Shown here one piece after another: positions 13,647 through 32,171 of a DNA stretch of 38,253 nucleotides. Numbering within the stretch: position 1 is the stretch's first letter; each line of letters begins with the position of its first letter. The DNA is taken from the IMG/VR virus record IMGVR_UViG_3300025607_000001; one strand, given 5' to 3'. This stretch comes from a virus. The notes beneath the pieces were generated by a model, which saw only the letters and a list, made by a program, of their open reading frames with translations, was not told the DNA's origin and searched no databases. A program made the position numbers and the translations under genes.

Positions 13647-13647
13647 T

Positions 13648-14208
13648 ATGCGAACGCTGCACCCCGACACCTTAGCGGCTCTTAAAACTGACCATTTACG
13701 CGCTATTTTAATTAAGCTCGATTTCACCCCAACGCCTATTTATTTAAGTAATACCGCCTTTGATGTGGTGCATAACGGCAACACCTATTTAGGCAATGGC
13801 CAACTGCTTAAAATCGGCAAAATACACCAAGACATTGATATTAGAGTATCAACCGTTGAGCTAACCCTCGACGCGGTTGACTCGTCATTAGTGTCGTTGT
13901 TGCTTGGCTTGCCGCAACACGGGCGAAACGTTGAATTATCACTAGCTATTTTAAACAATAACTATTCGATTATTGGTGATGTTATGCCTATGTATTCCAT
14001 GATCATCGACGGTGCGCCCAGCATTATTGACGACCCCAGCAAAGGCAAAGCTATCATAAAACAAAAAATATCTAGTGAGTTTGCCAACTGGAAACAAAAA
14101 GGCGGCATAAGAACAACACCGGCTAGCTTGCAACGCTTTTCACCAAACGACACGGGCTTTGATTTTGCTGCTGAAAGTGGCCGCGAATATAAATGGGGGG
14201 CAAAGTAA
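13648..14208 (+). CDS. Minor tail / tail-tip protein
   Basis: Second gene after the tape measure. Its TAATG overlaps the next gene. Confidence 0.5.
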   Translation: MRTLHPDTLAALKTDHLRAILIKLDFTPTPIYLSNTAFDVVHNGNTYLGNGQLLKIGKIHQDIDIRVSTVELTLDAVDSSLVSLLLGLPQHGRNVELSLAILNNNYSIIGDVMPMYSMIIDGAPSIIDDPSKGKAIIKQKISSEFANWKQKGGIRTTPASLQRFSPNDTGFDFAAESGREYKWGAK

Positions 14209-17417: not shown

Positions 17418-17444
17418 TTCAATCAACATTAAATAAGGGATGAA

Positions 17445-20120
17445 ATGACCCAACAAATAGATATTGCTGATTTAACGATCACCAAGGGCCAAGCCACCGT
17501 TACCGTTAACAGTAACGAAAGCCTGAAAGGTTATAAAGACGGCGACATTATTTTTACCACAGGCAACAAGCCTATTTTCGTAAAAATAATTACCGGGAAA
17601 ATTATTACCTTGCGTAGTAATGCCAGTTTTACGGCTAATAACGTAACTGCCGTTTTGATGGCTAATAACGTATCTTTACGCGAAGCGCTCACCACAATAC
17701 AAGAAAATAACAAAGCGTGGTCTGTGCACTTCTCGCCGTTTTTACATTGGATTTCAACCAATGAGCAAACCGCCGATTTAATTGATTCTAGCGGTAATGT
17801 TATCAATGTTTATTCTGCTCAAGGTATGAATGCTTTGGCGGTTAATATTGGCTCAGCGGTTAATGATGCGGCGCAATTACAACTTAATGTAAACACACTA
17901 ACCAGCACAGTGAGCAGTATTCAAAGCTCGCTTGACGCGTCGAAAAATGCAGCTAGAGCCAGTGAGGATAAGAGTAAAGCCAGTGAGAACGCAGCTAAAA
18001 CCAGTAAGGATCAAGCCGCCACCAGTGCCAGCGCTGCCGCTACCTCAAAGGCTGACGCGTTTAATAGTAAAAACTCAGCTAATACGGATAAATTAGCCGC
18101 CGCTAATAGTGCCAACGCTGCCAAAACAAGCGAAAACAATACCAGTGACAAGGTAACGTTAGCGAGTCAATACGCTAATCATCCCGAAGATGAATATATA
18201 CCAGGCACAACAGAATATTCTTCGAAGCATTGGAAACAAAAAGCTAAGGCTTTGGCCGGTGGTACTGCCCCCAACTCATTAGAGCTTGGTAATAAAACTG
18301 CCGCACAGTGGCAACAAGAGGTTGATGATGCGGGGGCATCGTTACCATTACCGTTAGTACACTTGTTTGCGCCTAATGAGATAGTAAAAACGCTTAGCGG
18401 AAAACTTACCAGTGCACGCCTCGGTCCCGCTACATATATTGATAGATACGGGAAATTGATTTATTCGCCTAGTCCAGTGGTCACTAACGGGGTTCCTTAC
18501 AGTGAAGATATAACAGATATATCTTGGGAAAAATTAGGCGTTACCGTTACAGGAAATGCAGGAACTGACCCTTTTGGCGGCATCAATGCAACGTTAATCA
18601 CTCCAACAGGGGGTGATTCTCTCCACTGTATTCGAGCATTTCAATTAAATTCTGTTTCTGCATCGACGACCCATTCTATTTTTGTAAAATACGCTGGTTA
18701 TAGCACTGTCGCTGTAGGTATTTATTCTGGTGGTCAGTCGAAAGAATGTAAGTTTGATTTTGATACTGGAGCTATTGACGTTGGGTCGGTTGGCGGTTCG
18801 ATGTCTGATATTGTTAGCGGAGGGGCCGAATACATATCAGAGGGGTGGTATCGTATATGGTTGAAAACAAACTTGCAGAGAACACAGATTATAATAGCTC
18901 CTAATTACACAGGAACATTTACGGGAGATACTGACAAAGGTGTGCTGGTTTTCGGTGTGGCAATTGAAAACGGTGTAACAGTGCCTAGCGGCTACCTTAA
19001 AACCACAGGCGCATCAAAGTCAGGTATTAGTTACCTTGGTATTGATACTTTGCGCATTAACGAAAAAGGTGCGCTGATCGAGGGTAGTAGCACCAACCTA
19101 TTCGCCGCTAACAGCATCAAGAGCTATACATTTTGGAATAAAGATGAAAACAACACGCTATTTTTTGATGATAGCGTACAAAATATTGACGGCACAATGG
19201 GGGCAATACGGGTAACTAACAACGATGTTAATACACGTCGAATTCACAATTCAAGAGCCAGCCCCTTAGCTTACGTTGCTAACACTAAAGTTACCGCGTC
19301 ATGTGTCGTTAGAAGCGGTAACGGTGGTGGTTTAAGAGTTCGCTTTTATGGCGATGGTGGATTATTTAAAGGTGATAAACTTTATAATATCGGTACGAAA
19401 ACACCCTCTGTATCATCGCCTAACGTCACTCTACTCAAGGTCGAGCCATTAGCTCATGGCTGGGACAGAGTGTCATTTTCCTTTGAGTCCGGCGTAAACA
19501 TTACAGATTTAGTGGCAGAGTTTTACACGTGGGACATTGGCAATATTACTGGTCAGACTATGTATATAGACTACATGCAGTTTGAAAATATTCCGTTTGC
19601 GTCAAGCATTATCATTAGTGGCGCATCCCCCGAAACAAGATCGGCTGACGATGTCAGTATACCTTGGCAGAATAATATAACGTTCGATAATTACACTATT
19701 ACAGCGGAAGTGACCTTACTTTCTAAAGATGAAGTCGTTTCAGGAACTAACGGAAGAAAGTATCTTTATAACATGAAGGGGTTTGCCATCCATGCTGCCT
19801 TTATTGATTCCGTAGGTACAAGGTTTTTCGCGTATGGCGCGGAAGGAACCACGGGGGCAGCATCTAACAGCGCTATTCCAAATACGCCTAACTTAAAAGT
19901 AGCTGTTGTTCGTGGAGCTAGCCCACAACAATTGCAAGTATACGCAGACGGCGAGGGAAGCGGAATAGACACTAGTTTTACGGAGAACGTTGTCTTGCCT
20001 CCCTCTACTAGTCGCTTTGAAATAGGTAGGCTATCTAGCGTGAGGTATCTATGGGGTTATATCAAAAACTTTAAAATATTCGATGTAGCATTAACAGCGG
20101 CGCAGGTGAAAAAATTATGA
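17445..20120 (+). CDS. Tail fibre with Ala/Ser-rich fibrous repeats and a LamG/concanavalin-like C-terminal domain
   Basis: SKASENAAKTSKDQAATSASAAATSKADAFNSKNSANT repeats. The C-terminal RYLWGYIKNFKIFDVALTAAQVKKL is typical of LamG-type domain ends. Confidence 0.75.
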   Translation: MTQQIDIADLTITKGQATVTVNSNESLKGYKDGDIIFTTGNKPIFVKIITGKIITLRSNASFTANNVTAVLMANNVSLREALTTIQENNKAWSVHFSPFLHWISTNEQTADLIDSSGNVINVYSAQGMNALAVNIGSAVNDAAQLQLNVNTLTSTVSSIQSSLDASKNAARASEDKSKASENAAKTSKDQAATSASAAATSKADAFNSKNSANTDKLAAANSANAAKTSENNTSDKVTLASQYANHPEDEYIPGTTEYSSKHWKQKAKALAGGTAPNSLELGNKTAAQWQQEVDDAGASLPLPLVHLFAPNEIVKTLSGKLTSARLGPATYIDRYGKLIYSPSPVVTNGVPYSEDITDISWEKLGVTVTGNAGTDPFGGINATLITPTGGDSLHCIRAFQLNSVSASTTHSIFVKYAGYSTVAVGIYSGGQSKECKFDFDTGAIDVGSVGGSMSDIVSGGAEYISEGWYRIWLKTNLQRTQIIIAPNYTGTFTGDTDKGVLVFGVAIENGVTVPSGYLKTTGASKSGISYLGIDTLRINEKGALIEGSSTNLFAANSIKSYTFWNKDENNTLFFDDSVQNIDGTMGAIRVTNNDVNTRRIHNSRASPLAYVANTKVTASCVVRSGNGGGLRVRFYGDGGLFKGDKLYNIGTKTPSVSSPNVTLLKVEPLAHGWDRVSFSFESGVNITDLVAEFYTWDIGNITGQTMYIDYMQFENIPFASSIIISGASPETRSADDVSIPWQNNITFDNYTITAEVTLLSKDEVVSGTNGRKYLYNMKGFAIHAAFIDSVGTRFFAYGAEGTTGAASNSAIPNTPNLKVAVVRGASPQQLQVYADGEGSGIDTSFTENVVLPPSTSRFEIGRLSSVRYLWGYIKNFKIFDVALTAAQVKKL

Positions 20121-20500
20121 TTACAGATTATATATTTGCAGTAACAGATTTAGAGGCTTTCAGAGTCTCGTTGTTATCAATTGAGTCTGATTTGGTAAGT
20201 ATTGGCGAAGATGGTGTAGCAACCATTCTCAGCCCGACCACAATGATTAAATACAAGGGGAATCAGTCAGTTGCTATTGCTAGGATTGATACTAACTCAC
20301 TGTCTGAACTAAGTAGTTTTGCTAGTATGGTTTTAGTGGGTGAGGCTAAGCAATCATTCATTAAAACTAACGATGATGTTAATTGGCTCAATGAAGATTT
20401 ATATCATTCGATTCATAGTATCGAACCGATAACTTATATAGATGATTATGGTTTTGAACAAAGCTATATCCCGTCTAAACTTCATTGTGTTTTTGCGTAG
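20117..20500 (+). CDS. Hypothetical protein (possible fibre accessory/assembly protein)
   Basis: ATGA overlap with the fibre gene stop. No motif recognised. Confidence 0.4.
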   Translation: MITDYIFAVTDLEAFRVSLLSIESDLVSIGEDGVATILSPTTMIKYKGNQSVAIARIDTNSLSELSSFASMVLVGEAKQSFIKTNDDVNWLNEDLYHSIHSIEPITYIDDYGFEQSYIPSKLHCVFA

Positions 20501-20511
20501 GAATATTAATC

Positions 20512-20877
20512 ATGGGTATTTGGTCTAGTTTATTTGGTAAAGACAATGTTATTCAAGCGGGCATTGATGGCCTTGACAAAATAGTGCACACCGACGAAGA
20601 AAAGTCAGACGCTAAACAAGCGTTTTTAAAGTTATACGAACCGTTTAAAATTGCACAACGTTTGTTGGCTGTTATTTATGGCGTGCCTTATGCGCTCGCG
20701 TGGTTTGTTACCTTTATGGTGTCATTTTTTACGGACGTATCAAAACAAGAGGCGTTATTGCAGGGCGATATAAGCCGCATTGTTTTTGCTATTGTTAGTT
20801 TTTACTTTGGTGGTGGTGCTGCTGAGGGTGTTGTTAGAATGTTAGCTAATAGAGGTAAGAACAGTGAAAGAAAGTAA
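20512..20877 (+). CDS. Holin-like membrane protein (3TM GTA-holin-like)
   Basis: Internal ATG (MGIWSSLFGK...) after AGGAATATTAATC. A hydrophilic N-terminus is followed by hydrophobic helices (LLAVIYGVPYALAWFVTFMVSFF, IVFAIVSFYFGGGAA). Confidence 0.45.
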   Translation: MGIWSSLFGKDNVIQAGIDGLDKIVHTDEEKSDAKQAFLKLYEPFKIAQRLLAVIYGVPYALAWFVTFMVSFFTDVSKQEALLQGDISRIVFAIVSFYFGGGAAEGVVRMLANRGKNSERK

Positions 20878-21094
20878 ACGTCATTATTTAATGCGGGTCT
20901 TAATCGCCTTTGACCAGTTTTTTAATGTACTGGTTTTTAATGGACGGCCCGATCATACTATTTCTGGTCGTGTTGGTTATTTTGCTATTAAGGGTGAAAA
21001 ATGGGCGTTGTATTGGGAAAAAATAATTAACACTTTGTTTTTCTGGCAAGCTGATCATTGTAGAAAATCAATTGAATGGGATGAAATGAAGTAA
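20864..21094 (+). CDS. Small conserved-looking phage protein (76 aa), last gene of the late operon
   Basis: Overlaps the preceding gene and is followed by a strong terminator. No function assigned. Confidence 0.45.
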   Translation: MKESKRHYLMRVLIAFDQFFNVLVFNGRPDHTISGRVGYFAIKGEKWALYWEKIINTLFFWQADHCRKSIEWDEMK

Positions 21095-21116
21095 GTACAA
21101 GGTGAGTATAAGTTAA

Positions 21117-21154
21117 GCAAGGCTATGATTAATCATAGATCCTTGCTTTTTTTT
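21117..21154 (+). terminator. Intrinsic terminator ending the late operon
   Basis: Long stem GCAAGGCTATGATT / AATCATAG-at-CCTTGC followed by T8. Confidence 0.75.
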
Positions 21155-21218
21155 GCTGTAGCATAACCGATCATCAATATATCGTTCAGGCTATTTAAAT
21201 AATAAAATAGTGGAAATA

Positions 21219-21245
21219 ATCACATATTGTGATACATTGTGTATC
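21219..21245. promoter_or_regulatory. Two overlapping palindromes upstream of repA (candidate operator)
   Basis: ATCACA-TAT-TGTGAT (21219-21233) and GATACA-TTG-TGTATC (21231-21245). Confidence 0.4.
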
Positions 21246-21315
21246 ACTTGCCATCGTTGGTGGCTAAAGGTAAGTATTAAGAAGAAAATTTAAACAATCA
21301 CCGAAATTCAGACAT

Positions 21316-21378
21316 AAAAAAACCGCTTTTGGCGAGCGGTTGATTTACTAGGTTTAAAATCACAAACCCCATAACAAG
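21316..21378 (-). ncRNA. Predicted countertranscript (CopA-like antisense RNA) in the repA leader
   Basis: Minus-strand promoter at 21385-21413. Minus-strand terminator: stem AACCGCT/AGCGGTT (21321-21341) followed by a U run (A run on the plus strand, 21316-21320). The predicted RNA is about 60 nt. Confidence 0.5.
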
Positions 21379-21384
21379 GACTTG

Positions 21385-21413
21385 ATTTTAAGCTGACGGG
21401 TTTCTTTTTGCAA
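21385..21413 (-). promoter_or_regulatory. Sigma70-like promoter for the antisense RNA
   Basis: On the minus strand: TTGCAA (21413-21408), a 17-nt spacer, then TAAAAT (21390-21385). Confidence 0.5.
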
Positions 21414-21436
21414 GAAAAAAATAAAAAGAGCTTAAA

Positions 21437-22243
21437 ATGAGAGTAAAAAATTCAACTCCGGCGTTTACTCGTCCGAATCATCAAAAGAATTTACCGTCTT
21501 TTTTAGTGGCATGTAACACCATGCTAACCAAGTGCCCTGCGTCGGCGTGGGACGGTTGGCAACTTATTCGCCGTGTTCATGGCAAATCATTAATGAATAC
21601 TCACCGCGCGAGTGCGATCAATTCCCTTTTCATTGCTATTGCTAATCATGTTGATTTAAAGAGCAGCGTGGTTTTTTCTAATGTTTATGATCTGGCCCAT
21701 GCTACGGGCTTGGCTACGGTAAGTGCGGCGGGTAATGTTTCAATAACGCGTTGTAGTCGTGCCATAATCGAAATGGAAAAAGCGGGCTTTCTTGAAACTG
21801 AATTGGTTTGGGATCGCGTCTTGGGTTGTCATATACCAAAATTTATTAATGTCACTGATTTGTTTTGGGAGATAGCACACCCCGAGGGCACAAAGGGTTA
21901 TCATGCAGCGCGTGAAAGCCAAATTTCTTACCAAAGGCAAGGTTTAGCAGAGCCAGAGGAATGGTTGACCGTGAGCCAAGCCAAAGAGCGCCGCCGTAGA
22001 ATGCACATTAAAACCGCTTTTAAGTTAAGACGCGCTAAACATGAAAAATCAAAGCAGCGAACAGCGGCCAAGAAGCTAACCAATGACAACATTGTTGTTT
22101 CTCGCGGTAAGATAGGCAAAGAAATACTAGACGAACTTGGCTCTTTACACGGCCTAGACCCTAAAGCGTTTCAGGTGATGATCAGCCAACGTTACGCACT
22201 GTATAACAAAATAGCAGCAGACCCCGCACCCACAAGGCACTAA
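21437..22243 (+). CDS. repA: Plasmid replication initiator, IncFII RepA family
   Basis: The segment GLATVSAAGNVSITRCSRAIIEMEKAGFLETELVWDRVLGCHIPKFINVTDLF aligns by eye with R1 RepA GLATESAAGKLSITRATRALTFLSELGLITYQTEYDPLIGCYIPTDITFTSALF. The C-terminus is basic. Confidence 0.85.
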   Translation: MRVKNSTPAFTRPNHQKNLPSFLVACNTMLTKCPASAWDGWQLIRRVHGKSLMNTHRASAINSLFIAIANHVDLKSSVVFSNVYDLAHATGLATVSAAGNVSITRCSRAIIEMEKAGFLETELVWDRVLGCHIPKFINVTDLFWEIAHPEGTKGYHAARESQISYQRQGLAEPEEWLTVSQAKERRRRMHIKTAFKLRRAKHEKSKQRTAAKKLTNDNIVVSRGKIGKEILDELGSLHGLDPKAFQVMISQRYALYNKIAADPAPTRH

Positions 22244-22262
22244 GCCAACTTATTAAATAAAA

Positions 22263-22283
22263 CCCTGCCTTGGCGGGGTTTTA
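22263..22283 (+). terminator. Hairpin plus T run just after repA
   Basis: CCCTGCC / GGCGGGG (one G-U pair) followed by TTTTA. Confidence 0.45.
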
Positions 22284-22379
22284 GTCGTTCCCTCGAATAA
22301 ATAACCATGTAATATGGGCCTTACTCACTTCTCATTATGCCGTTTTCACCCCTGTTTTTAATCATTCTGCGCTAGATAA

Positions 22380-22500
22380 ATCACATCCTTTAGTTATACA
22401 CAATATAATGCAATTGCTTTATCTAATATAACGCCCACGTATAGATATATAATGCAAAGTCACTATAACTACTTATATATAAATAAACCTTATGGCTACG
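22380..22500. other. Candidate replication origin (oriR-like): DnaA-box-like site plus AT-rich repeats
   Basis: TTATACACA (22394-22402) fits TTATNCACA. The 11-nt direct repeat ATATAATGCAA lies at 22403 and 22447 (44 bp apart). The tract is very AT-rich and begins about 150 bp after the repA stop, as in R1. Confidence 0.4.
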
Positions 22501-22802
22501 CCTAAAGTGAATAAATGCACGCCCTTGGTTTTTTTGCTAAAGAAACAGCAAAAGGGCGTAATTGTCGTTTGGTTCACTGCCTGGTGATAACTGACCGCTG
22601 CGTCACCTACATTTTCAATGAGATAATACCACTTGAGTAATCGTTGATGTTGAAGCTTATTAAGAGCGTCGCTTCGCTCAGTTTGGCAAGGGATAGACAA
22701 GTTTTGTGCCTATTTGTTTAATAGGCCTGTTTATTCTATTATGCGTGCTTATTACTTCATTACGGCTCACTAACAACACACCCCATAAAAGGAATTTAAC
22801 GC

Positions 22803-23015
22803 ATGGCTAAAGATTTAGAACGAACGCTAAAGAAATGTAAAAAGTGCAAAAGAAAAACTGAGCACTTACGAAATACAGACAAAACAGGTTTATTGTCCCT
22901 GTTAATCCATATAGCGTTAATTTTTATTACGGCTGGTATTTGGCTTATTCTTATTGTTATTTACAAGATCCTTAACGCTAAGGTGGGCGGCTGGCAGTGT
23001 AGCGAGTGTGGTTAA
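22803..23015 (+). CDS. Small membrane protein with split zinc-ribbon (CKKC...CSEC) flanking one TM helix
   Basis: 70 aa, RBS AAAGGAA, followed by a strong terminator. Confidence 0.55.
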   Translation: MAKDLERTLKKCKKCKRKTEHLRNTDKTGLLSLLIHIALIFITAGIWLILIVIYKILNAKVGGWQCSECG

Positions 23016-23047
23016 ATGGGTTTTTCCCTACAGTTTAATAGCTATTA

Positions 23048-23077
23048 AGCCTGTATTTTTATACGGGCTTTTTTTTG
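23048..23077 (+). terminator. Intrinsic terminator
   Basis: AGCCTGTAT / ATACGGGCT stem, TTTT loop, T8 tail. Confidence 0.75.
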
Positions 23078-23150
23078 ACCTAAAATAACCGTTTTGGTGA
23101 TTTAGTGCTTAATATTGCTTTAATACTGAGCATATAGAATAAACAATATT

Positions 23151-23180
23151 CAACGGCAGTAAACGGCAGTAAAAGACAGT
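23151..23180. repeat. Three tandem 10-bp units (cAACGGCAGT aAACGGCAGT aAAAGACAGT)
   Basis: Read directly from the sequence. The repeat has helical-turn periodicity. Confidence 0.8.
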
Positions 23181-23342
23181 TGTTATTATTTGTTAAATTA
23201 ACGTAAATTTAGCGTCTATTTTGGTGTTGATATTTGTAAGGCAGTGTAATGGCGATGTGTATTTGTTTAGCGTAGATTCGCCCGTATCACAAACGACCGT
23301 TATTTGACCACCACGTAAACACGGTGTTAATTAATGCTTTCG

Positions 23343-23397
23343 TGTTTCAAAACTATGTGTCACTATTGATGTCTCAAAACAACGGCTTTATGACACA
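23343..23397. promoter_or_regulatory. res-like / recombinase-binding array: four TGTNTCA half-sites
   Basis: TGTTTCA (23343), TGTGTCA (23356) and TGTCTCA (23370) are direct; TGACACA (23391) is inverted. The last pair forms a 28-bp unit, TGTCTCAAAA-N8-TTATGACACA. The array ends 6 nt before the recombinase ATG. Confidence 0.5.
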
Positions 23398-23403
23398 CAG
23401 ACA

Positions 23404-23955
23404 ATGAAATTTGGTTACGCAAGGGTTAGCACTAAACAACAAGAATTAGCCTTACAAGTAGACGCGCTTAAAGCGGCTGGCTGTGATGAAATAATCACCG
23501 AAGTTGAAACAGGCGCGAACAATGATCGCCCCGCACGATTGGCCATGATAGATAAGCTTAGAAAAGGCGATATTGTGACGGTGTGGCGTTTAGATAGGTT
23601 TGGCCGTTCTATGCCTGATTTAATAGAAAAGGTTGAACAGTTAAGCGCCCAAGGTGTTGAGTTTATCTCGTTACAAGAAAATATAGATACTACCTCAGCC
23701 ACGGGCCGGTTAATTTTTCATATTTTTGCGGGCCTCGCAGAATTTGAACGTAATTTGATTTCAGAAAGAACAAGAGCCGGATTAGCAGCAGCACGAAAAC
23801 GCGGTAAATTGGGTGGAAGAAAAAGAATTATGAATGATATTCAGGTCAAAACAGCTAGACGATTAATATCAGGGGAAAACCCCGTAAATCGTGAAGAAGT
23901 GGCCAAAATGCTTGGCGTTAGCCGGTCAACACTTTACCGAGAATTAAAAGAATAA
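23404..23955 (+). CDS. Serine recombinase (resolvase/DNA-invertase family)
   Basis: GYARVSTKQQ (catalytic Ser), VWRLDRFGRS, AGLAAARKRGKLGGRKR and a C-terminal HTH (GVSRSTLYRELK). Confidence 0.92.
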   Translation: MKFGYARVSTKQQELALQVDALKAAGCDEIITEVETGANNDRPARLAMIDKLRKGDIVTVWRLDRFGRSMPDLIEKVEQLSAQGVEFISLQENIDTTSATGRLIFHIFAGLAEFERNLISERTRAGLAAARKRGKLGGRKRIMNDIQVKTARRLISGENPVNREEVAKMLGVSRSTLYRELKE

Positions 23956-24062
23956 AAACCTTACTTTTTATATTGATTTTAATCAAAATAATCACGAATC
24001 GTGTTTAAAAAATAGTAAGCGTGTCGTATTATAGAGACTGGTTTTTTATTGGGAAATGAATA

Positions 24063-24260
24063 ATGGAAGTCACGAATTCAGGCGTTAAAGCAATAGTTAA
24101 TATTGGTCCGGAAGATAATAAATTACAAAAAATCGAGCCGCAACAAGATAAAGCGACTGCGGCACTCAGCACAGACAAGATAACATTGTCTGATGATTTA
24201 ATTATGACTATGGGTACTGGTGGCGGCACTACTAAGCCACCACCAACAACAGAAAACTAA
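24063..24260 (+). CDS. Small hydrophilic protein (65 aa) with a Gly/Thr/Pro-rich tail
   Basis: Track ORF with a weak RBS. Ends ...MGTGGGTTKPPPTTEN. First gene of a three-gene unit. Confidence 0.4.
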   Translation: MEVTNSGVKAIVNIGPEDNKLQKIEPQQDKATAALSTDKITLSDDLIMTMGTGGGTTKPPPTTEN

Positions 24261-24270
24261 AGGACATTAC

Positions 24271-24873
24271 ATGGATGTATTATCGTTCTTGATATTTATT
24301 GATGGGTACGTGGGGAGCTTAAATCATGTACTTATCAATAATCTACTTGCGTTGATCTTGGTTGTTTTGGCTTATGACAATAAAGAAGATAGTAATTTTT
24401 TGTTTGTTATTTCTATGATGTTAATACCAAAGCTAGTTGATATTTTGGTATTGAATGATTTTTTATTGTCTGACTTTGTGCCGAATTATTTATTTTTCTT
24501 ATTTTATTCTGTTTATGACGCACTCGTTCTTTGGTTGATTCTATATAGAACCAAAGTGATTCGTCTTTTTTTGATTATAAAAATAAAAGTGTGCCACCTT
24601 TTAAATATAAATAGTGATGCTGAAACTTTTACCTATGTCCGTCATGTTAACGAATATAAAATAACAGTTATCTTTGCAGTAAGCATTCTTATTAACTTAA
24701 TTGTAGCTGTCGAATACCCGCTAAGATGGTATATAAGTGATGAAATATTATATTTTTACTATTTGTATGCACCATTAAAATTTGGATTGAATATAGCGTT
24801 AGTTTATTGGGGTTCAAAAATGAATCCCGAAAAACAAAATACCTCAAGGAGTACACCAGGTGAATGTAAGTAA
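24271..24873 (+). CDS. Polytopic membrane protein (about 200 aa, roughly 5-6 TM), unknown family
   Basis: Internal ATG after AAAGGA. Very AT-rich, with multiple hydrophobic helices. Confidence 0.6.
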   Translation: MDVLSFLIFIDGYVGSLNHVLINNLLALILVVLAYDNKEDSNFLFVISMMLIPKLVDILVLNDFLLSDFVPNYLFFLFYSVYDALVLWLILYRTKVIRLFLIIKIKVCHLLNINSDAETFTYVRHVNEYKITVIFAVSILINLIVAVEYPLRWYISDEILYFYYLYAPLKFGLNIALVYWGSKMNPEKQNTSRSTPGECK

Positions 24874-25201
24874 CTTTATTGTTGAATTATTTGAACTGTC
24901 AGGATTGAGTGAGCATGATTTCTGTCAAAAACTCGATATTGATGCCGAACAGTTGGCTGAAATAAAAGCGGGTAAAGCTCCAAGCGGCTCAGCTTGTAAA
25001 ATGTTGTTAAAGGCTGTTTCAGTCGCTTTATTTTCCAAAAAGACAAACTGTGACCTTGATGAAGTTCACGACGAATTGACAAAGGCTCGGGCTATCATTG
25101 TGACGGTTGGGGAAAGCTCGCATTTAGCCGAACATCATCAGGATTCACTATCGGCGGCTGCTGAAATGATTGATAACTCAAGGCAAAGAATATCCTCATA
25201 A
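24860..25201 (+). CDS. XRE-type HTH protein (antitoxin-like)
   Basis: GTG start 8 nt after AAGGAG. GLSEHDFCQKLDIDAEQLAEIKAGKAPSGSACKMLL resembles XRE/HigA/MqsA-type HTH domains. It overlaps the membrane protein gene by 14 nt. Confidence 0.6.
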   Translation: MNVSNFIVELFELSGLSEHDFCQKLDIDAEQLAEIKAGKAPSGSACKMLLKAVSVALFSKKTNCDLDEVHDELTKARAIIVTVGESSHLAEHHQDSLSAAAEMIDNSRQRISS

Positions 25202-25219
25202 CATTAAATACCAGACAAT

Positions 25220-25258
25220 AAAAAGCCGCTCTTATATAATCAATAAGAGCGGCTTTTT
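25220..25258. terminator. Bidirectional intrinsic terminator
   Basis: 11-bp perfect stem AGCCGCTCTTA / TAAGAGCGGCT flanked by A5 and T5. Confidence 0.8.
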
Positions 25259-25275
25259 AATGGTTTATAACTTAC

Positions 25276-25401
25276 CTATTTAATGTTGAACTGGTTCAAG
25301 AAAGGGTAGTAAACGGCTAGGCTTTCACGGATGAATAAAGGCAGTAATATTAATTGTGTTAGTGGCATAGCTCGTAATATGGTAAATTGTTCAATAGACA
25401 T
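25276..25401 (-). CDS. Possible small ORF (41 aa, MSIEQFTILRAMPLTQLILLPLFIRESLAVYYPFLNQFNIK)
   Basis: Not in the track because it is under 60 aa. A GAGGA lies 6 nt upstream of the ATG. It sits between the twin hairpins and the bidirectional terminator. Confidence 0.3.
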   Translation of the reverse strand: MSIEQFTILRAMPLTQLILLPLFIRESLAVYYPFLNQFNIK

Positions 25402-25430
25402 TGTTTATCCTCACAGGTTTTAATAATGTT

Positions 25431-25477
25431 GCCTTAGTTAGTGCTAAGGCGGTTGATGGGCTGTTAGTGCAGCCCAT
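25431..25477. other. Twin hairpins with identical hexaloops
   Basis: GCCTTAG-ttagtg-CTAAGGC (25431-25450) and ATGGGCTG-ttagtg-CAGCCCAT (25456-25477), 5 nt apart. Confidence 0.6.
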
Positions 25478-25486
25478 TAATTTATT

Positions 25487-25518
25487 TAAATTGATTTAAT
25501 TCAATTAAATCGATTTAA
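25487..25518. repeat. Centromere-like motifs downstream of the partition operon
   Basis: TAATTCAATT (25498-25507) and the palindrome TTAAATCGATTTAA (25505-25518). Both recur upstream of parA. Confidence 0.5.
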
Positions 25519-25790
25519 ACTAATCTTTCATGGTTGAGCAAGTCTGTATTGTTTTTCAGGAAGTTTTTTAAATATGTACCCAGCGGAAGTCCTCCCGCTT
25601 TTGCTGTAAAGTTTTCAAGCTCTTGTGGTGTAAGTGTTAACGTTACTCTTTCAGATGCTTTCTCTTCTGGAGCCAAAGCTTTTTTACCTGGCTTTGCTCG
25701 TTCAGTGGTTGAGGCGTGTTGTTCTGCTGCTTTCAAAATTGACGGCTTAGCCACCTTTATTACACTATTCTTTTTTTTGTCATTACTCAT
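25515..25790 (-). CDS. Ribbon-helix-helix centromere-binding protein (ParG-like)
   Basis: Internal ATG (MSNDKKK...) overlaps the parA stop by 8 nt. ERVTLTLTPQELENFTAKAGGLPLGTYLKNFL fits an RHH strand-helix-helix pattern. Confidence 0.65.
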   Translation of the reverse strand: MSNDKKKNSVIKVAKPSILKAAEQHASTTERAKPGKKALAPEEKASERVTLTLTPQELENFTAKAGGLPLGTYLKNFLKNNTDLLNHERLV

Positions 25791-26445
25791 GATTGCTGAT
25801 CTCCTGATAAATATTATTAAGTTGTTCGGCCTCGATGCCATACCTATGTTTCAATAAATTACTTGATTGGGTTAATTCAATGAGTGATTTCTCTTCATCG
25901 TCTACCAAATCAAAGCCGTTAGAAAACTTCAATGGTAAAATAGGTAAGCTAAAATCAATGTTAGCCTCTACTTGTTTTTTGATATTTATATAGTCTTCTG
26001 ATGTGGTCCAGTCGTATGGCCCTATACTCAAATTACCCTCTTTCTTTTTGCCTACCACTTTGCTTTTAGTTAACTTAGTCGCTACGACAATTATATTTTT
26101 AGTGAACTGTGCAACCTCTAAAATAGTCTGAATACCACCTTGTAAACATCTTAGGTGATTGTAGATAGGGACTATAACAACGTTAGATTGCTTTATAGCT
26201 GACGTAATACTCAATGACTTGTTGGAGATAGCCCCTGATAAATCAAAGACAATATCAGTGTCTTTGCTTAGCAATGGGAACTCTTCACTTTGCCCAACGA
26301 CTAGTTGCTGTTCTTCTTCGAATAAATCACTGTAAACATTAATCGATTCATTAGTACCAATACAGTAACCGTGATCTAGCGCTATATTAGTGGATAGCGG
26401 TGTTTTCCCTGCTGACCCTTTGATGTTGTATACCGTAATTTTCAT
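25783..26445 (-). CDS. parA: Partition ATPase, small ParA (type Ib, ParF-like)
   Basis: 220 aa with the N-terminal deviant Walker A ITVYNIKGSAGKT. Followed by a small RHH gene and flanked by repeat arrays. Confidence 0.85.
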   Translation of the reverse strand: MKITVYNIKGSAGKTPLSTNIALDHGYCIGTNESINVYSDLFEEEQQLVVGQSEEFPLLSKDTDIVFDLSGAISNKSLSITSAIKQSNVVIVPIYNHLRCLQGGIQTILEVAQFTKNIIVVATKLTKSKVVGKKKEGNLSIGPYDWTTSEDYINIKKQVEANIDFSLPILPLKFSNGFDLVDDEEKSLIELTQSSNLLKHRYGIEAEQLNNIYQEISNHE

Positions 26446-26466
26446 GCTTCATTCCTTAACACGTTT

Positions 26467-26578
26467 GATTTGAATTGATTAAAACATATTAAATCGATTT
26501 AATCAAATTAAACCGATTAATTCAATTTAATTCAATTTAATTCAATTTAATTCAATTGTATCGATTTAATTGAATTAT
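26467..26578. repeat. Centromere/operator-like repeat array upstream of parA
   Basis: TTAAATCGATTTAA (26489-26502); four tandem TAATTCAATT units (26518-26557); TCGATTTAAT; and an inverted copy, AATTGAATTA (26569-26578). Confidence 0.65.
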
Positions 26579-26702
26579 GTTGATTGGTTAAGCTATTTAG
26601 CCTGTATCAACATAATGCTTTACCCACCAATAAAAATGAATTAATATATTAATTAATAAGTAAATGATTTATTAATTAATTAATGTATTAAAGGGGTTTG
26701 AA

Positions 26703-27659
26703 ATGGAAGTTAAAAAAACAGCAGGGCGCACAGGTATAGATAAAGCGGTTTATATCAATCAAATTCAAACATGGTTAAATGGTGATTTCCGCTTATCTGA
26801 CATTACCGCAACAAAGTTACAAAAAGCTGTTGGCGGTCAATATAAAAAAGCGGTGGATTATTTAGAAGACTTTAAGCAAGGTTATGAAACTAAAGAGCTT
26901 GCCGACTTGCCACAACCACCCGAAGCATTCACCAACCTATTACATGCGGCAGGGCAAGACGCTTGGCGTGTATTGTGGGAAGAAAAAAACAAAGCTGTTG
27001 CTGATGCTATCGCCGCTTTTGATATTGAACGTACAGCGTTAAACGTTCGCGCTGATGAATATTTAAGTGTGATTGATCAGCATGAACAAGAGATTGACGA
27101 GCTAAAAGCACAACTGTCGGATAGTGATAAAAGTATCAATGAGGTTAACCAAGAAAAAACCACGCTTAATGATGCGTTAACCAATGAACGCATTGCCTTA
27201 GCGCAAACAAGCGAACGCGCTGATCAGTTAGATGCACGTTTAACAGAAGCAAACGGCCAGTTAAACGTTTTTATTGATAAAAACGCGCAACTTGAAAGAG
27301 AGAAAAACCAAAGTAAACAAGACATTGACACGATAACAGAACAAAGAAACGTGTTAACAACGAAAGCCACCAACTTTGAGGATCGCGCCGCTGAATTGCA
27401 AGCCTCACTAACTAACGAAAGCGATAATACTAAGGTGTTAACCAACAAGCTTAATGAGAACGCCGCCGCTAACACTGAGTTAACCACGGAACTAGCCACC
27501 AAAACAGCATTGTACGATCAGTTATTAACGCAATTAACCAAAGAGCAGGCCCAAGCAGAAAAAGCCAATGAACAAAGCGTAAAATCGTTAAGTGATGTAA
27601 ATAAGCGATTAGATAATTTACAACACGAGTTGGTTAAAATTGCGGGAAAGGCTAAGTAA
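26703..27659 (+). CDS. kfrA: KfrA-like protein (N-terminal DNA-binding domain plus long coiled coil)
   Basis: The N-terminal roughly 60 aa are followed by about 230 aa of heptad-rich, Q/E/L/N-rich sequence. It lies next to the partition locus. Confidence 0.6.
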   Translation: MEVKKTAGRTGIDKAVYINQIQTWLNGDFRLSDITATKLQKAVGGQYKKAVDYLEDFKQGYETKELADLPQPPEAFTNLLHAAGQDAWRVLWEEKNKAVADAIAAFDIERTALNVRADEYLSVIDQHEQEIDELKAQLSDSDKSINEVNQEKTTLNDALTNERIALAQTSERADQLDARLTEANGQLNVFIDKNAQLEREKNQSKQDIDTITEQRNVLTTKATNFEDRAAELQASLTNESDNTKVLTNKLNENAAANTELTTELATKTALYDQLLTQLTKEQAQAEKANEQSVKSLSDVNKRLDNLQHELVKIAGKAK

Positions 27660-27689
27660 CTGAATACCCCAAAGTGTTGCATTTAGGTG

Positions 27690-27718
27690 ATGCGGTCTAG
27701 CTATAGGCCGCATTCTTT
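27690..27718 (+). terminator. Terminator-like hairpin after the kfrA-like gene
   Basis: ATGCGG / CCGCAT stem followed by TCTTTC. Confidence 0.4.
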
Positions 27719-27750
27719 CGTTATGGTGATCGGGAATATGCTTTGATATG

Positions 27751-27778
27751 TGCAACAGTTCTGTGCAGTTCTGTTGCA
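27751..27778. other. Hairpin TGCAACAG-N12-CTGTTGCA containing the AACAG motif
   Basis: 8-bp perfect arms. The loop carries the direct repeat CAGTTCTGT x2. Confidence 0.5.
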
Positions 27779-27829
27779 TTTGTGAAAACGGACTAAATTT
27801 AAAGCCCGTATATTAAGTATAGTTGTTTG

Positions 27830-28003
27830 CTATTTTAATTCTTTATCCGCTAAACTTTTTAGCCATGCCCCAAGCTTTAACCCCTGCTTTTTGGCTTCTG
27901 CCTCATAGAGTATTTTCATATCTGGTTCAACCCTAAATTCACATCTAGCGCTTGCCTTGACTTGTTTCATAGGTCGCCCAACCTTTTTTTTATCATCTTT
28001 CAT
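27830..28003 (-). CDS. Ribbon-helix-helix repressor (57 aa), paralogue-like to the ParG-like protein
   Basis: Internal ATG (MKDDKKK...). ARCEFRVEPDMKILYEAEAKKQGLKLGAWLKSLA parallels VTLTLTPQELENFTAKAGGLPLGTYLKNFL. Confidence 0.65.
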   Translation of the reverse strand: MKDDKKKVGRPMKQVKASARCEFRVEPDMKILYEAEAKKQGLKLGAWLKSLADKELK

Positions 28004-28010
28004 GCTGCGA

Positions 28011-28039
28011 ATATTAGTACGTACAATAAACAAATGCAA
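28011..28039 (-). promoter_or_regulatory. Promoter of the RHH gene with an embedded operator; predicted leaderless mRNA
   Basis: Minus strand: TTGCAT, a 17-nt spacer containing TTGTACGTAC, TAATAT, then 7 nt, then ATG. Confidence 0.5.
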
Positions 28040-28054
28040 TATTTAATTAATGTC

Positions 28055-28108
28055 CGTACTTTTATTGACTTTATAAAACAATAATGTATTATTGTACGTA
28101 CATTAATT
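28055..28108 (+). promoter_or_regulatory. Promoter/operator copy A (TTGACT-16-TATTAT, operator TTGTACGTACA)
   Basis: -35 at 28065-28070, -10 at 28087-28092, GTACGTAC at 28094-28101. Shares 15-nt and 24-nt identical blocks with copy B exactly 280 bp downstream. Confidence 0.6.
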
Positions 28109-28133
28109 ATCTGAACAGTTCTAAGGCAATCAA

Positions 28134-28298
28134 ATGGAAACTTTAAATTTAGGAAACAACGAGTCACTAGTTAGAGGCGTATTCAATAATAACGATGGCA
28201 CTTTTACAGTATTAACTTTTACTCGGTCTTGGACTTACAAAACAGAAAAAGCCGCTAACAAAAAATGGTCTGCCTTAGTATCAGCCGACTTGGTTTAG
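28134..28298 (+). CDS. Small protein (54 aa, METLNLGNNESLVRGVFNNNDGTFTVLTFTRSWTYKTEKAANKKWSALVSADLV)
   Basis: Not in the track because it is under 60 aa. AAGG lies upstream. It is bracketed by the two promoter copies. Confidence 0.45.
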   Translation: METLNLGNNESLVRGVFNNNDGTFTVLTFTRSWTYKTEKAANKKWSALVSADLV

Positions 28299-28334
28299 TC
28301 GATTACGTACAATAAAAATAATTACTTTATTGTA

Positions 28335-28388
28335 CGTACTTTTATTGACATCTATAAATATAGGTGTATTATTGTACGTACATTAATT
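28335..28388 (+). promoter_or_regulatory. Promoter/operator copy B (TTGACA-16-TATTAT, two GTACGTAC operators)
   Basis: -35 at 28345-28350, -10 at 28367-28372. GTACGTAC at 28332-28339 and 28374-28381, plus the near-copy TTACGTACAA at 28303-28312. Confidence 0.6.
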
Positions 28389-28415
28389 GTTTAGACACTT
28401 TCCAAGGTATACAAA

Positions 28416-28628
28416 ATGAATTCATCAATAAACATCACAATAAAAGACTTTAGCTGCACTGATTATGACGTTAAACGTGATTCAAAATTGGTTGGGACTT
28501 TAGTCAAAAACAATAAATATTCAAGCTTACTTAAATTCGTACCGCTTGAAGATTCAGGGCTTATGCACTTGGATGGCAAAGTATTCATGGATGTTTTAAC
28601 GGCTAATTTAACTATTGCAAAGGCGTAA
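28416..28628 (+). CDS. Small protein (70 aa), translationally coupled to the methyltransferase
   Basis: RBS CAAGG. Its TAATG overlaps the next gene. Confidence 0.5.
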   Translation: MNSSINITIKDFSCTDYDVKRDSKLVGTLVKNNKYSSLLKFVPLEDSGLMHLDGKVFMDVLTANLTIAKA

Positions 28629-29239
28629 TGAAATTGAAGATATTAAATTTATATGCGGGTCTTGGTGGAAATAGAAAGTTATGGGAGGGGCACGAAGTCA
28701 CAGCCGTTGAAATGGATGAAAAAATTGCCGCTGTTTATAAACGATTAAACCCTAATGATGAAGTGATTATTGCTGATGCTCACGAATACTTATTACAACA
28801 TTATCAAGAGTTTGATTTTATTTGGGCCTCGCCTCCATGCCAAAGCCATTCCCGTATGATCAGGTCTGGCAGAAATAGAAAGCCCCGCTTTGCTGATATG
28901 AAATTGTATGAAGAAATTCTATTTTTAGAACATAACTTTGATGGTCAATGGGTGGTTGAAAATGTCAAACCTTACTACCAGCCATTGATTGAATATCAAA
29001 ATATTGGCCGTCATGTTTTTTGGTCTAACTTCGATATTCCGCACATGGATGAACCAAAATTTAAAAACTTTATTAATGCGCAAAACCTAAAAGCGAAACA
29101 AGCCTTAATGGAGTGGTTAGATATTCACTACGAAGAAAACATTTACTACGGTAACAACCATTGCCCCACGCAGGTTTTGCGTAACTGTGTACACCCTACC
29201 GTGGGAAAACACATCATTGAAGCGGCAATTGCTGCATAA
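28628..29239 (+). CDS. DNA (cytosine-5) methyltransferase, unusually short (203 aa)
   Basis: Motif I LNLYAGLGG, motif IV ASPPCQSHS, motif VI VVENV and a C-terminal RNCVHPTVGKHI (motif X-like). Confidence 0.82.
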   Translation: MKLKILNLYAGLGGNRKLWEGHEVTAVEMDEKIAAVYKRLNPNDEVIIADAHEYLLQHYQEFDFIWASPPCQSHSRMIRSGRNRKPRFADMKLYEEILFLEHNFDGQWVVENVKPYYQPLIEYQNIGRHVFWSNFDIPHMDEPKFKNFINAQNLKAKQALMEWLDIHYEENIYYGNNHCPTQVLRNCVHPTVGKHIIEAAIAA

Positions 29240-29270
29240 ACTGAACAGAATAGCCCGTAGGGATAAACAA

Positions 29271-29552
29271 ATGATTGTCATATTTAAAAACGAACAGGGT
29301 ACTTTTTCGGTAAGACCTGCATTTATAGGCTTTATCAAAAACGATATTATTCGAAGAACTTTAACCTCGTTATTCTTCCCACTAATACTATTTTTAACCA
29401 TCGTTATTAATATTATTCAAGCGGCTTTTGTTTCCATTATTTTATTTGCTAGGTCTGTTTATTATCCATTATCAAAGATAAAACCAATGTGGAAAACAGA
29501 TATTTGGCATAGGCCAAGAACGAAAAACGACAATAAAAAAACATTAAACTAA
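29271..29552 (+). CDS. Small membrane protein (93 aa)
   Basis: Internal ATG of track ORF 29187..29552, chosen because it lies after the MTase stop and after the AACAGAAT junction motif. Hydrophobic core LFFPLILFLTIVINIIQAAFVSIILF. Confidence 0.45.
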   Translation: MIVIFKNEQGTFSVRPAFIGFIKNDIIRRTLTSLFFPLILFLTIVINIIQAAFVSIILFARSVYYPLSKIKPMWKTDIWHRPRTKNDNKKTLN

Positions 29553-29565
29553 ACAGAATTAAGCG
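29550..29565 (+). repeat. Intergenic junction repeat TAAACAGAATTAAGCG (identical copy at 29828..29843)
   Basis: Exact 16-nt identity. Each copy lies 28-30 nt upstream of a start codon. Confidence 0.9.
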
Positions 29566-29579
29566 GAGTTAGATCGGAT

Positions 29580-29825
29580 ATGGAAAAAATAACATTAAAA
29601 ATAGGTCGTCATGAGTACGATATTAGTAGTGACGATACATTTATGGATAACAGCCATTGCGTTCAATTAACTTCACAAAGTAAAGAGAACATAGATATTG
29701 GTGGTGGTCGTTGTAACCCTGTGCTTTCTCAACGTGCAGTTAAACAAATAGCAAGTTTTGAGCGAATGCAATTACAGCATGGCTACGGCTCAAATGTTCA
29801 AATATTTAGCTTGAACATCAATTAA
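29580..29825 (+). CDS. Hypothetical protein (81 aa)
   Basis: Track ORF, preceded by the exact 16-nt junction repeat and a purine-rich RBS. Confidence 0.5.
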   Translation: MEKITLKIGRHEYDISSDDTFMDNSHCVQLTSQSKENIDIGGGRCNPVLSQRAVKQIASFERMQLQHGYGSNVQIFSLNIN

Positions 29826-29827
29826 CT

Positions 29828-29843
29828 TAAACAGAATTAAGCG
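29828..29843 (+). repeat. Intergenic junction repeat TAAACAGAATTAAGCG (second copy)
   Basis: Exact copy of 29550..29565. Confidence 0.9.
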
Positions 29844-29859
29844 TACAGATAGGAATGTT

Positions 29860-30093
29860 ATGAATAAATACGATGAAACTTTACCAGTATTAAATAAAGA
29901 TCAAGTCTTTGTTTGCGAGGATGGCTGTGGTGACTGTGAAGCTGTTGAGTTTGATTATTGCTATAGCCGGTCTGAAAACCTAGCAACTGGCAAAGTGGTT
30001 GAACTGACACATAGAGCTTATAAATCTAGCTGCTGTGGAGCCAAAATTAATGTTTGGGATGAATCAATAGAAGATATTGTTCAACAAAAGTAG
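29860..30093 (+). CDS. Cys-rich small protein (77 aa; CEDGCGDCE ... SCCG)
   Basis: Track ORF, preceded by the exact 16-nt junction repeat and AGGAA. Confidence 0.5.
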   Translation: MNKYDETLPVLNKDQVFVCEDGCGDCEAVEFDYCYSRSENLATGKVVELTHRAYKSSCCGAKINVWDESIEDIVQQK

Positions 30094-32121: not shown

Positions 32122-32171
32122 TATAGGGCAAATAAAAGGCGTACTAATGCACGCCTTTTGTTTGCCCTATA
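32122..32171. terminator. Long hairpin (21-nt arms, one mismatch) overlapping the cI stop codon; terminator in both directions
   Basis: TATAGGGCAAATAAAAGGCGT - actaatgc - ACGCCTTTTGTTTGCCCTATA. The inner GC stem is followed by a T-rich tract on both strands. Confidence 0.65.

Follow-up and report, generated by a model that had tools for sequence, protein, structure and literature searches.

An IncFII-family replicon and a partition module in the 38-kb genome of a marine HK97-like siphovirus, a probable phage-plasmid

The replication region

The stretch of viral DNA considered here, IMG/VR record IMGVR_UViG_3300025607_000001 (38,253 nucleotides, referred to at its full length as the window, or W), is from a virus of an uncultured marine bacterium and carries a complete morphogenesis set together with plasmid replication and partition genes on one molecule. 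The subject of this analysis is the plasmid-like region that follows the late operon, beginning with repA, which encodes a replication initiator of the IncFII family, and what it implies for the way in which the prophage is kept. Related contigs and loci used for comparison carry numbers with the prefix L. The features of the replication region are as follows.

21229-21247, + strand: GTGATACATT, candidate extended -10 (TG-a-TACATT) of the repA promoter, invariant in W, L057, L060-62 and L059
21313-21378, - strand: candidate antisense RNA of ~66 nt, with a variable 5' hairpin, a terminator hairpin (21341-21321) and a U7 run
21385-21413, - strand: countertranscript promoter-like site TTGCAA-17-TAAAAT, invariant in six related elements
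21437-22243, + strand: repA, IncFII-family plasmid replication initiator, 268 aa (Pfam, NCBIfam, phrog_7060)
22258-22283, + strand: repA terminator hairpin, kept in relatives
22385-22515: candidate origin, a non-coding block conserved in W, L060, L063 and L057 while its flanks diverge
22803-23015, + strand: 70-aa zinc-ribbon membrane protein with a weak LITAF-like match, always between repA and the recombinase gene in sister elements

A preliminary description of this DNA, made from the sequence alone, had assigned RepA to the IncFII family, and profile searches bear this out; every gene that it named is present at the position given. The protein matched PF02387 at 116 bits (cut-off 22.9, E 2.7e-33, residues 3-231) and NF040977, RepA_IncFII_LM, at 165 bits (cut-off 70, E 2.4e-48, residues 4-254), while against the classical IncFII equivalogs TIGR03474 and NF010313 it scored 48 and 50 bits, below their cut-offs of 447 and 478. 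A further match, of 163 bits, was to phrog_7060, a phage family of 'unknown function', from which it follows that IncFII-like initiators are already a recurrent phage gene; Yersinia phages vB_YpM_39, 41 and 44 also carry an IncFII RepA. The best match in the plasmid collection was the RepA of Serratia pJSRIV006_2 (35%), with no plasmid RepA above ~35%. The RepA clade was not found in the 185,579 representative genomes scanned, a collection in which a 40-mer of the NCBI MAG contig with the 76% RepA and the SASA-esterase protein described below likewise gave no match; IMG/VR contained a single, distant relative. RepA is the sole recognisable replication protein of the element, as had been claimed: in Pfam and PHROG scans the remaining open reading frames (ORFs) between 20 and 37.5 kb showed no domain of a helicase, a primase, an O/P-like protein or any other initiator.

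In known IncFII and IncL/M replicons a countertranscript is encoded within the repA leader and the origin lies downstream of repA. The window resembles the IncFII (R1/NR1) and IncL/M replicons in the family of its RepA, in a predicted countertranscript gene in the repA leader and in a predicted origin with a DnaA box downstream of repA. The candidate antisense RNA is complementary to the leader 60-125 nt 5' of the ATG and is predicted to form two hairpins (minimum free energy -17.9 kcal/mol, z -2.3). Among six related elements the promoter hexamers and the terminator were invariant or compensated, and the first hairpin varied in sequence with its shape kept. On the minus strand all six relatives fold alike, into two hairpins, and in each of them the plus-strand fold is the less stable; the terminator stem of L063 is fully paired as minus-strand RNA only, its G-U pair being a C-A mismatch on the other strand. 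A conserved leader structure of this kind is what marks the copy-control countertranscripts of IncFII, IncB, IncI and IncL/M replicons. The element GTGATACATT, which in the window is part of the dyad GTGATAC-N5-GTATCAC, may serve as the repA promoter.

An Rfam scan at a permissive threshold found no CopA-like or other RNA family. No CopB-type repressor gene was seen between the late-operon terminator and repA, where the only ORFs are short and unconserved, and no tap/repB-type leader peptide was conserved across the relatives. One 10-codon ORF with a TTG start (21408-21440) overlaps repA by ATGA, but its frame is not kept in L060 or L063 and its TTG lies within the antisense -35 hexamer. The window therefore differs from R1/NR1 in failing the classical equivalogs, in having no Rfam CopA match, CopB-like gene or conserved leader peptide, and in its shorter antisense RNA (~66 nt). 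The earlier label 'R1-type' stands for family and organisation, but not for the classical equivalogs, CopA, CopB or a clear tap-like peptide.

The candidate origin contains a DnaA-box-like TTATACACA at 22394-22402 (TTAYNCACA in four relatives) and an AT-rich TATATATAAATAAACC; ATATAATGCAA occurs in it twice, at 22403-22413 and 22447-22457, with a spacing of 44 bp. The block at 22385-22515 thus has the position and content expected of an IncFII-type origin.

Partition, resolution and KfrA-like genes

Downstream of the replicon lie a serine recombinase gene and, further on, a putative partition operon with a divergent coiled-coil gene.

23283-23399: res-like array of six half-sites related to TGTNTCAAAAC; an inverted pair at 23283-23311, forward sites at 23343, 23356 and 23370 and a reverse site at 23391
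23404-23955, + strand: serine recombinase of resolvase type, 183 aa, with a C-terminal helix-turn-helix (HTH) domain (PF00239, 150 bits, E 8e-44; HTH_7, 27 bits)
25476-25524: downstream centromere-like cluster of 4-5 units of 10 bp, just past the gene for the 91-aa protein
25515-25790, - strand: 91-aa probable ribbon-helix-helix (RHH) centromere-binding protein, ParG-like; its start overlaps the end of parA
25783-26445, - strand: parA, small deviant-Walker-A ATPase (KGSAGKT) of 220 aa with no N-terminal DNA-binding domain, recognised from predicted fold and motif
26470-26583: upstream centromere/operator-like array of ~11 units of 10 bp (AATTCAATTT / AAATCGATTT), overlapping the parA promoter region
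26631-26691: AT-rich palindromic region immediately 5' of the KfrA-like gene
26703-27659, + strand: KfrA-like protein; N-terminal domain of 100 aa and C-terminal tail conserved, coiled coil between them variable

The identification of ParA, proposed in the preliminary description, was not obtained by profile search, which recovered the Walker A stretch only (E 0.004-0.017), nor did phmmer and a 30-sequence profile run against PDB find any ParA. It is the predicted fold that sustains it. An AlphaFold model built on the family alignment (pLDDT 88.6) had as its top Foldseek matches TP228 ParF/ParA and then McdA, Soj, MinD and other ParA-like ATPases (E 3e-7, probability 1.0, TM 0.53-0.63). This match to ParF-type ATPases points to a small ParA without a DNA-binding domain, of the type Ib kind. 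The family to which it belongs comprises ~400 clusters, mostly from marine metagenomes, in which KGSAGKT is invariant and which Pfam rarely recognises. Forty loci of the family (L012-L051) came from marine Alpha- and Gammaproteobacteria, mussel symbionts and other genomes and metagenome-assembled genomes (MAGs); members are named MinD-like or BcsQ in their sources and the usual partner is an RHH-like ORF of ~85 aa.

The 91-aa protein had also been described as an RHH partner. It has 40 detectable homologues, and of the 38 scanned 11 matched RHH_7 (best E 1.8e-4) and seven matched NikA-like, also ribbon-helix-helix, families; the window protein itself has no Pfam match and its profile gave only weak matches in PDB, to the small proteins 2kke and 1x93. 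A homologous small ORF lies downstream of this ParA family in 13 of 20 loci. The claim of centromere-like repeats on both sides of the operon proved well founded: the 15-mer TTAATTCAATTTAAT, with up to three mismatches, has 32 occurrences in the window where 7.4 +/- 2.6 would be expected, 25 of them in the clusters at 25477-25519 and 26488-26578. Repeats flanking the par operon are the layout of pB171 par2 (parC1/parC2).

The module is like type Ib systems (TP228 ParF/ParG/parH; pB171 par2) in its small ParA without DNA-binding domain, for which ParF is the best structural match, in a small partner, probably RHH-like, next in the operon, and in repeats upstream and, as in pB171 par2, downstream. 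It differs in that the window ParA has no detectable sequence similarity to those of type Ib and belongs to a distinct, mostly marine family.

The KfrA-like gene is divergent from parA and shares an intergenic region with it, in which the palindromic region at 26631-26691 could possibly be an operator. Only ten other homologues of its product were found, all with the N-terminal domain, coiled coil and C-terminal tail. KfrA_N (PF11740) matched two of the 11 family members (best E 7e-4) but not the window protein. When aligned with R751 KfrA by hhalign, the N-terminal domain by itself reached a probability of 35% (E 4e-4, 41 columns), against 91% (E 1e-6) once the coiled coil was added; residues 93-314 gave coiled-coil matches of the SMC, Rad50 and crescentin type. 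The earlier designation as KfrA-like fits the coiled coil and the position, and homology to KfrA is conceivable.

A serine recombinase with a res-like array had likewise been proposed. The recombinase is clear, and the positions of the half-sites are kept in five relatives; an enrichment test of the half-site motif over the whole window was not significant, so that the res assignment draws on local clustering and conservation. The PHROG label for the recombinase is 'DNA invertase'. An invertase was set aside, since the array of half-sites adjoins the gene on its upstream side and neither an invertible segment nearby nor long inverted repeats flanking any segment could be found.

The phage backbone and its named relatives

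The genes of the virion, of immunity and of integration are listed below.

1578-21094, + strand: late operon, with HNH, small terminase subunit TerS (P27/Terminase_4), large terminase subunit TerL, portal, S78 protease, HK97-type capsid, connectors, tail_T, tape measure, J-like protein and tail fibre
21113-21150, + strand: terminator-like hairpin and T-run at the end of the late operon, as read from the sequence
32167-32751, - strand: CI-like repressor (HTH and S24 peptidase)
34387-35568, + strand: tyrosine integrase, 42-43% identical to the integrases of PhiPS02, K256/TG34 and p114-2

Pfam assignments in the late operon were made from identical genes in contigs L007 and L001, with the capsid falling in PF05065. 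The operon is full and uninterrupted and the HNH/terminase pair is intact, in agreement with the earlier account of a complete HK97-like set. CI, by its HTH and S24 domains, and the tyrosine integrase, by domain scans, were also correctly named; a 'Q-like' protein, by contrast, found no support other than a PHROG of unknown function. Searches of the window revealed no tRNA and nothing resembling an attP. Pfam recognised no endolysin or holin, and 36542-37446 corresponds to the holin/lysis region of PhiPS02 and K256. Several small early ORFs have no family match.

Near-identity searches with the plasmid region and the late operon revealed no nucleotide similarity in the phage or plasmid collections, and the window is therefore not of the same genus as PhiPS02, p114-2 or TG34. 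At the protein level TerL is 53-54% identical to that of Vibrio phage PhiPS02 and of a large set of Vibrio phages 'K2xx/K3xx', including K256, and the window is collinear with PhiPS02 (PV649651, 34.7 kb), K256 (OZ195684, 37.5 kb) and p114-2 (NZ_CP060090, 36.9 kb, closed circular). Homologues of 17 window genes occur in the same order in PhiPS02 at 27-61% identity, most of them also in K256 and p114-2. Identities to these Vibrio relatives are 26-54% for HNH, TerS, TerL, portal, capsid, connector and tape measure, 33% for CI, 48-50% for Cro, 28-37% for three early ORFs, 42-43% for the integrase and 37-39% for the late regulator. A 268-aa coiled-coil protein (30588-31394, - strand) without family match is encoded by all sister elements. 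Next to ParA and Dam, the Vibrio relatives PhiPS02, K256/TG34 and p114-2 have a conserved 288-aa ORF with which it shares 43% identity, and its gene is specific to the lineage.

The likeness to p114-2 and PhiPS02, at 35-37 kb, extends from HNH, P27 TerS, TerL, portal, HK97 head and tail to an IncFII-family RepA directly past the tail genes, and then through a plasmid/accessory region with ParA, the coiled-coil ORF, Dam, CI, Cro, three early ORFs, integrase, regulator and lysis genes. The RepA of both scores 87 bits against IncFII_repA and is 27-28% identical to that of the window, and p114-2 has a homologue of the KfrA-like gene (60% over the N-terminal domain). They differ in that their ParA is of the ordinary CbiA/AAA_31 type, unrelated to the window ParA by BLAST, in an exonuclease that is absent from the window and in unrelated tail-tip and fibre genes; the serine resolvase, full-length in the window, is a fragment in p114-2. 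The latter was published as a plasmid 'never reported in Vibrio' that carries a prophage (PMC8209731). Neither that paper nor the one on PhiPS02 (PMC12724201) mentions a dual nature.

K256 and K303 belong to genus 49, that is LG49 or TG34, of Vibrio crassostreae (PMC13230959, supplementary table). TG34/LG49 was described as a circular phage-plasmid with infectious particles, extrachromosomal contigs, a plasmid:chromosome ratio of 3-10 by droplet digital PCR and a partition system (PMC13230959). It shares backbone and size with the window and is the sole relative for which plasmid-like maintenance as well as infectious particles is supported by experiment, but K256 has other par genes and, in the RepA slot, a 239-aa ORF without a Pfam match that is unlike the window RepA. 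PhiPS02 and K256 are both plaque-forming isolates with the gene order of the window. The preliminary description had considered the combination worth documenting; with the architecture already in public records, its novelty was overstated.

Further afield, Serratia sp. pJSRIV006_2 (NZ_CP074139, 44 kb) is a lambda-like phage recorded as a plasmid, with RepA (35%) directly past the tail-fibre gene, ParA and a repressor; it differs in lambda-type tail genes, another early region, a toxin-antitoxin system and an enterobacterial host. The classical phage-plasmids (P1, N15, SSU5/pHCM2, pKpn, pSLy3, AB) are likewise temperate phages with a plasmid replicon, partition and multimer resolution. They are 55-111 kb in size, whereas the window is 38 kb, with an HK97-like head, a lambda-like immunity layout and a tyrosine integrase that has been kept. 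A Sodalis phage-like plasmid considered as a possible precedent was dropped, the actual match, pSG2, being an ordinary mobilizable plasmid.

Assembly and state of the element in its source

Three features bear on the topology of the element.

1-127 = 38127-38253: terminal overlap, an exact 127-nt identity of the ends (repeat D2), with the junction inside the SASA-esterase gene
37454-38253 then 1-1088, + strand: SASA-esterase gene, 586 aa, its 5' part at the window end; 1.74 kb identical to a copy in a second phage
37365-38253 and 1-1161 (L007 6449-8371; L004 10824-12746): shared 1.9-kb segment with the SASA-esterase gene

The identity of the ends marks the window as a circular assembly with a length of 38,126 bp; contigs L004 and L005 are continuous across the junction. 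The exact window RepA is present on eight metagenome contigs, three of them of 50-200 kb. In a 91.5-kb contig the element stands between two direct copies of the 1.9-kb segment. These copies differ from the window at their outer edges only, the central 1740 bp being identical in all three. Beyond the segment lies a second, unrelated phage, 'X': one flank encodes tail proteins, the other an integrase, a UmuD-like protein and methyltransferases. The single-nucleotide polymorphisms at the edges of the SASA copies have the pattern of a single crossover between circular W and phage X. The long contigs may be either a real W/X cointegrate or an assembler join through a repeat too long for short reads; in either case the shared SASA gene implies that both phages share a host and have recently exchanged the gene.

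The sequence beside the integrase was uninterrupted on both sides in all contigs read. Chromosomal integration was rejected as an account of the long contigs, which are flanked on either side by phage genes and have their junctions in the shared gene, not at an att site. Extension further into the 91.5-kb contig was not obtained, as an exact-pattern scan of metagenomes was empty and a protein scan gave only short unrelated contigs. The assemblies are compatible with a free circle but are no proof of one.

Sister elements and exchange of modules

Only five other protein clusters are close to the window RepA, at 88, 80, 76, 56 and 56% identity. The 76-88% proteins belong to sister siphoviruses on contigs of 25-43 kb, that at 76% being carried on an NCBI MAG contig. 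The sisters share the block of RepA, 70-aa protein, resolvase and membrane protein and the CI-Cro-integrase backbone; their tail tips are different and an ordinary CbiA-type ParA replaces the ParA/RHH/KfrA-like unit. That unit lies in the window in a region of low G+C content (0.33-0.36 at 24000-30000, compared with 0.41-0.45 in the late operon), and it is probably a recently swapped module, given that the sisters are unlike the window there.

The clade is not confined to siphoviruses. One of the two 56% RepAs (L064, 2804-3610) is on a P2-like myovirus contig. A second P2-like contig, L053, carries a 334-aa IncFII-family RepA (7134-8273) that is ~16% identical to the window RepA, along with a KfrA-like homologue (66%) and a 129-bp leader/antisense cassette 77.5% identical to that of the window. 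In L052 (Logan SRR12157859, a 35.9-kb contig) the cassette is 80% identical and the downstream 70-aa gene is present, but repA is not, and ~900 bp with only a 40-codon ORF take its place (4756-5922). The same RepA clade or ~130-bp leader cassette is thus found in HK97-like siphoviruses (W, L057, L060, L063) and in P2-like myoviruses (L053, L064/L066). The cassette outlasts a change of initiator (L053) and even its loss (L052), so that the control region may itself be a recombination module or an incompatibility determinant.

All sister and RepA-clade contigs are of 22-43 kb. It can be proposed tentatively, at somewhat less than even odds, that they represent an undescribed marine group of phage-plasmids of ~22-43 kb in which an antisense-controlled IncFII-like cassette moves between unrelated virion types, with possible cointegrates with a co-resident phage through the 1.74-kb esterase gene.

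Other open reading frames

A 74-nt unit is duplicated at 28047-28120 and 28327-28400 (77% identical), each with strong promoter-like hexamers TTGACA/TTGACT-16-TATTAT and the palindrome TTGTACGTACAA. The two copies precede two small-gene operons, one with DUF1391 and the other with a 70-aa ORF and a C5 methyltransferase gene. Adjoining them is an ORF of 67 aa (27830-28033, - strand) with a weak NikA-like/RHH match, and units and ORF may form a separate repressor-operator circuit. A 200-aa multi-pass membrane protein and a 113-aa protein with a weak HTH match (24271-25201) are kept downstream of the resolvase in all sisters; a role in superinfection exclusion would be a guess.

Maintenance of the prophage

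The window is read as the complete 38.1-kb genome of a temperate HK97-like siphovirus (HNH/P27-terminase, cos-type) whose prophage is kept as a low-copy circular plasmid, a reading to which a probability of roughly 0.75 is given. It is a distant new member of the lineage already known from p114-2, PhiPS02 and the experimentally supported TG34, and not a new type of element. The reading is strengthened by the conserved antisense-RNA gene, the ori-like block and the collinear relatives that are documented plasmids. The phage-plasmid nature asserted in the preliminary description is accordingly supported by the component genes and these collinear plasmids, and from them we infer extrachromosomal persistence of the window element itself.

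A number of observations weigh against this reading. The circular closure of the element runs through the 1.74-kb gene that is identical in a second phage, which makes the topology in its source ambiguous and the free circle a prediction; three other samples place the element in contigs of 79-107 kb, between two copies of the SASA segment. The integrase appears intact and is P4-like. PhiPS02 was published as an integrating temperate phage with attL and attR reported, though predicted only (PMC12724201). The replicon is dispensable for at least one relative, since L052 is without repA. Antisense RNA and origin are both predictions, ParA and its RHH partner are assigned from a modelled fold and weak profile matches, and for the KfrA-like protein, whose architecture and genomic position fit KfrA, homology is tentative.

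If the plasmid reading is correct, repA would be transcribed from a promoter ~200 nt upstream, and a constitutive antisense RNA of ~66 nt would pair with the leader, limit RepA synthesis and so set copy number and incompatibility, with its variable 5' hairpin as the specificity determinant. RepA would act on the block 140-270 bp downstream of its gene, with the DnaA box, ATATAATGCAA repeats and AT-rich stretch, and initiate theta replication with host DnaA. The RHH protein would bind both repeat arrays and nucleoid-associated ParA-ATP would segregate the copies by type Ib logic; the resolvase would convert dimers to monomers at res, and the KfrA-like protein may be an accessory DNA-binding or scaffold factor. 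Cleavage of CI upon DNA damage would turn on the late operon, and lytic replication would also have to be fed by the same replicon or by an early ORF. The integrase, as a conserved gene of the lineage, might serve occasional integration or recombination and would be dispensable for maintenance.

The window could instead be an ordinary integrating temperate phage in which RepA and its origin serve early or lytic phage replication only and par and resolvase are accessory or vestigial. The intact P4-like integrase favours this, as do the description of PhiPS02 as integrating and the occurrence of the element in contigs of 79-107 kb, and as the sole replication gene RepA must serve lytic growth anyway. 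Yet a copy-limiting antisense RNA, a par operon with two centromere-like arrays and a dimer resolvase would be of use only to a stably inherited episome, and p114-2 and TG34, both of them extrachromosomal, have a homologous integrase too. The contigs, moreover, continue unbroken past both sides of int, the long ones join through the shared 1.9-kb segment and not at an att site beside int, with flanks of phage and not host genes, and no tRNA or attP-like feature was found; integration as the normal state is for these reasons considered unlikely. The same long contigs raise another question, whether the element is non-autonomous in its source, a cointegrate with or an insertion in phage 'X' formed by recombination in the SASA-esterase gene, the 38-kb circle being an assembler shortcut. 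Three samples gave contigs (91.5, 79 and up to 107 kb) in which the element lies between two 1.9-kb copies, the edge polymorphisms fit a single crossover and the identical 1740 bp are too long for short reads. The ambiguity is symmetrical, and the long contigs could equally be mis-joins; the sisters and Vibrio relatives stand alone at 34-43 kb, a closed plasmid and packaged phage genomes among them, and in the window the phage and plasmid genes form a full and self-sufficient complement of packageable size, which makes this account quite improbable. Least credence of all is given to a defective remnant, a prophage captured by a plasmid that no longer makes infectious particles. It would suit the first description of p114-2 simply as a prophage-carrying plasmid, the many ORFs without assigned function and the lack of an endolysin or holin by Pfam, but it is very hard to reconcile with a full morphogenesis operon, an intact HNH/terminase pair and the plaque-forming PhiPS02 and K256, which have the same gene order and whose holin/lysis region is matched by 36542-37446.

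Implications

Most catalogued phage-plasmid groups are of 55-111 kb and come from enterobacteria and Acinetobacter. The window, its metagenomic sisters and the Vibrio relatives point to compact phages of ~35-40 kb with a lambda-like layout that are also plasmids in marine bacteria, with a replicon family best known from resistance plasmids. For annotation there are two consequences: this ParA family is invisible to Pfam and needs structure-based recognition, and relatives have been filed as 'plasmid' or as 'integrating phage' with their dual nature unnoted. Such elements would provide a small model for how a single RepA/antisense replicon may serve both lysogenic copy control and lytic growth, why an integrase is kept, and how replication, partition and virion modules are swapped. 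What is of most interest is the apparent exchange of replicon and control cassette between siphovirus and myovirus backbones, together with a ParA family that is recognisable by structure only.

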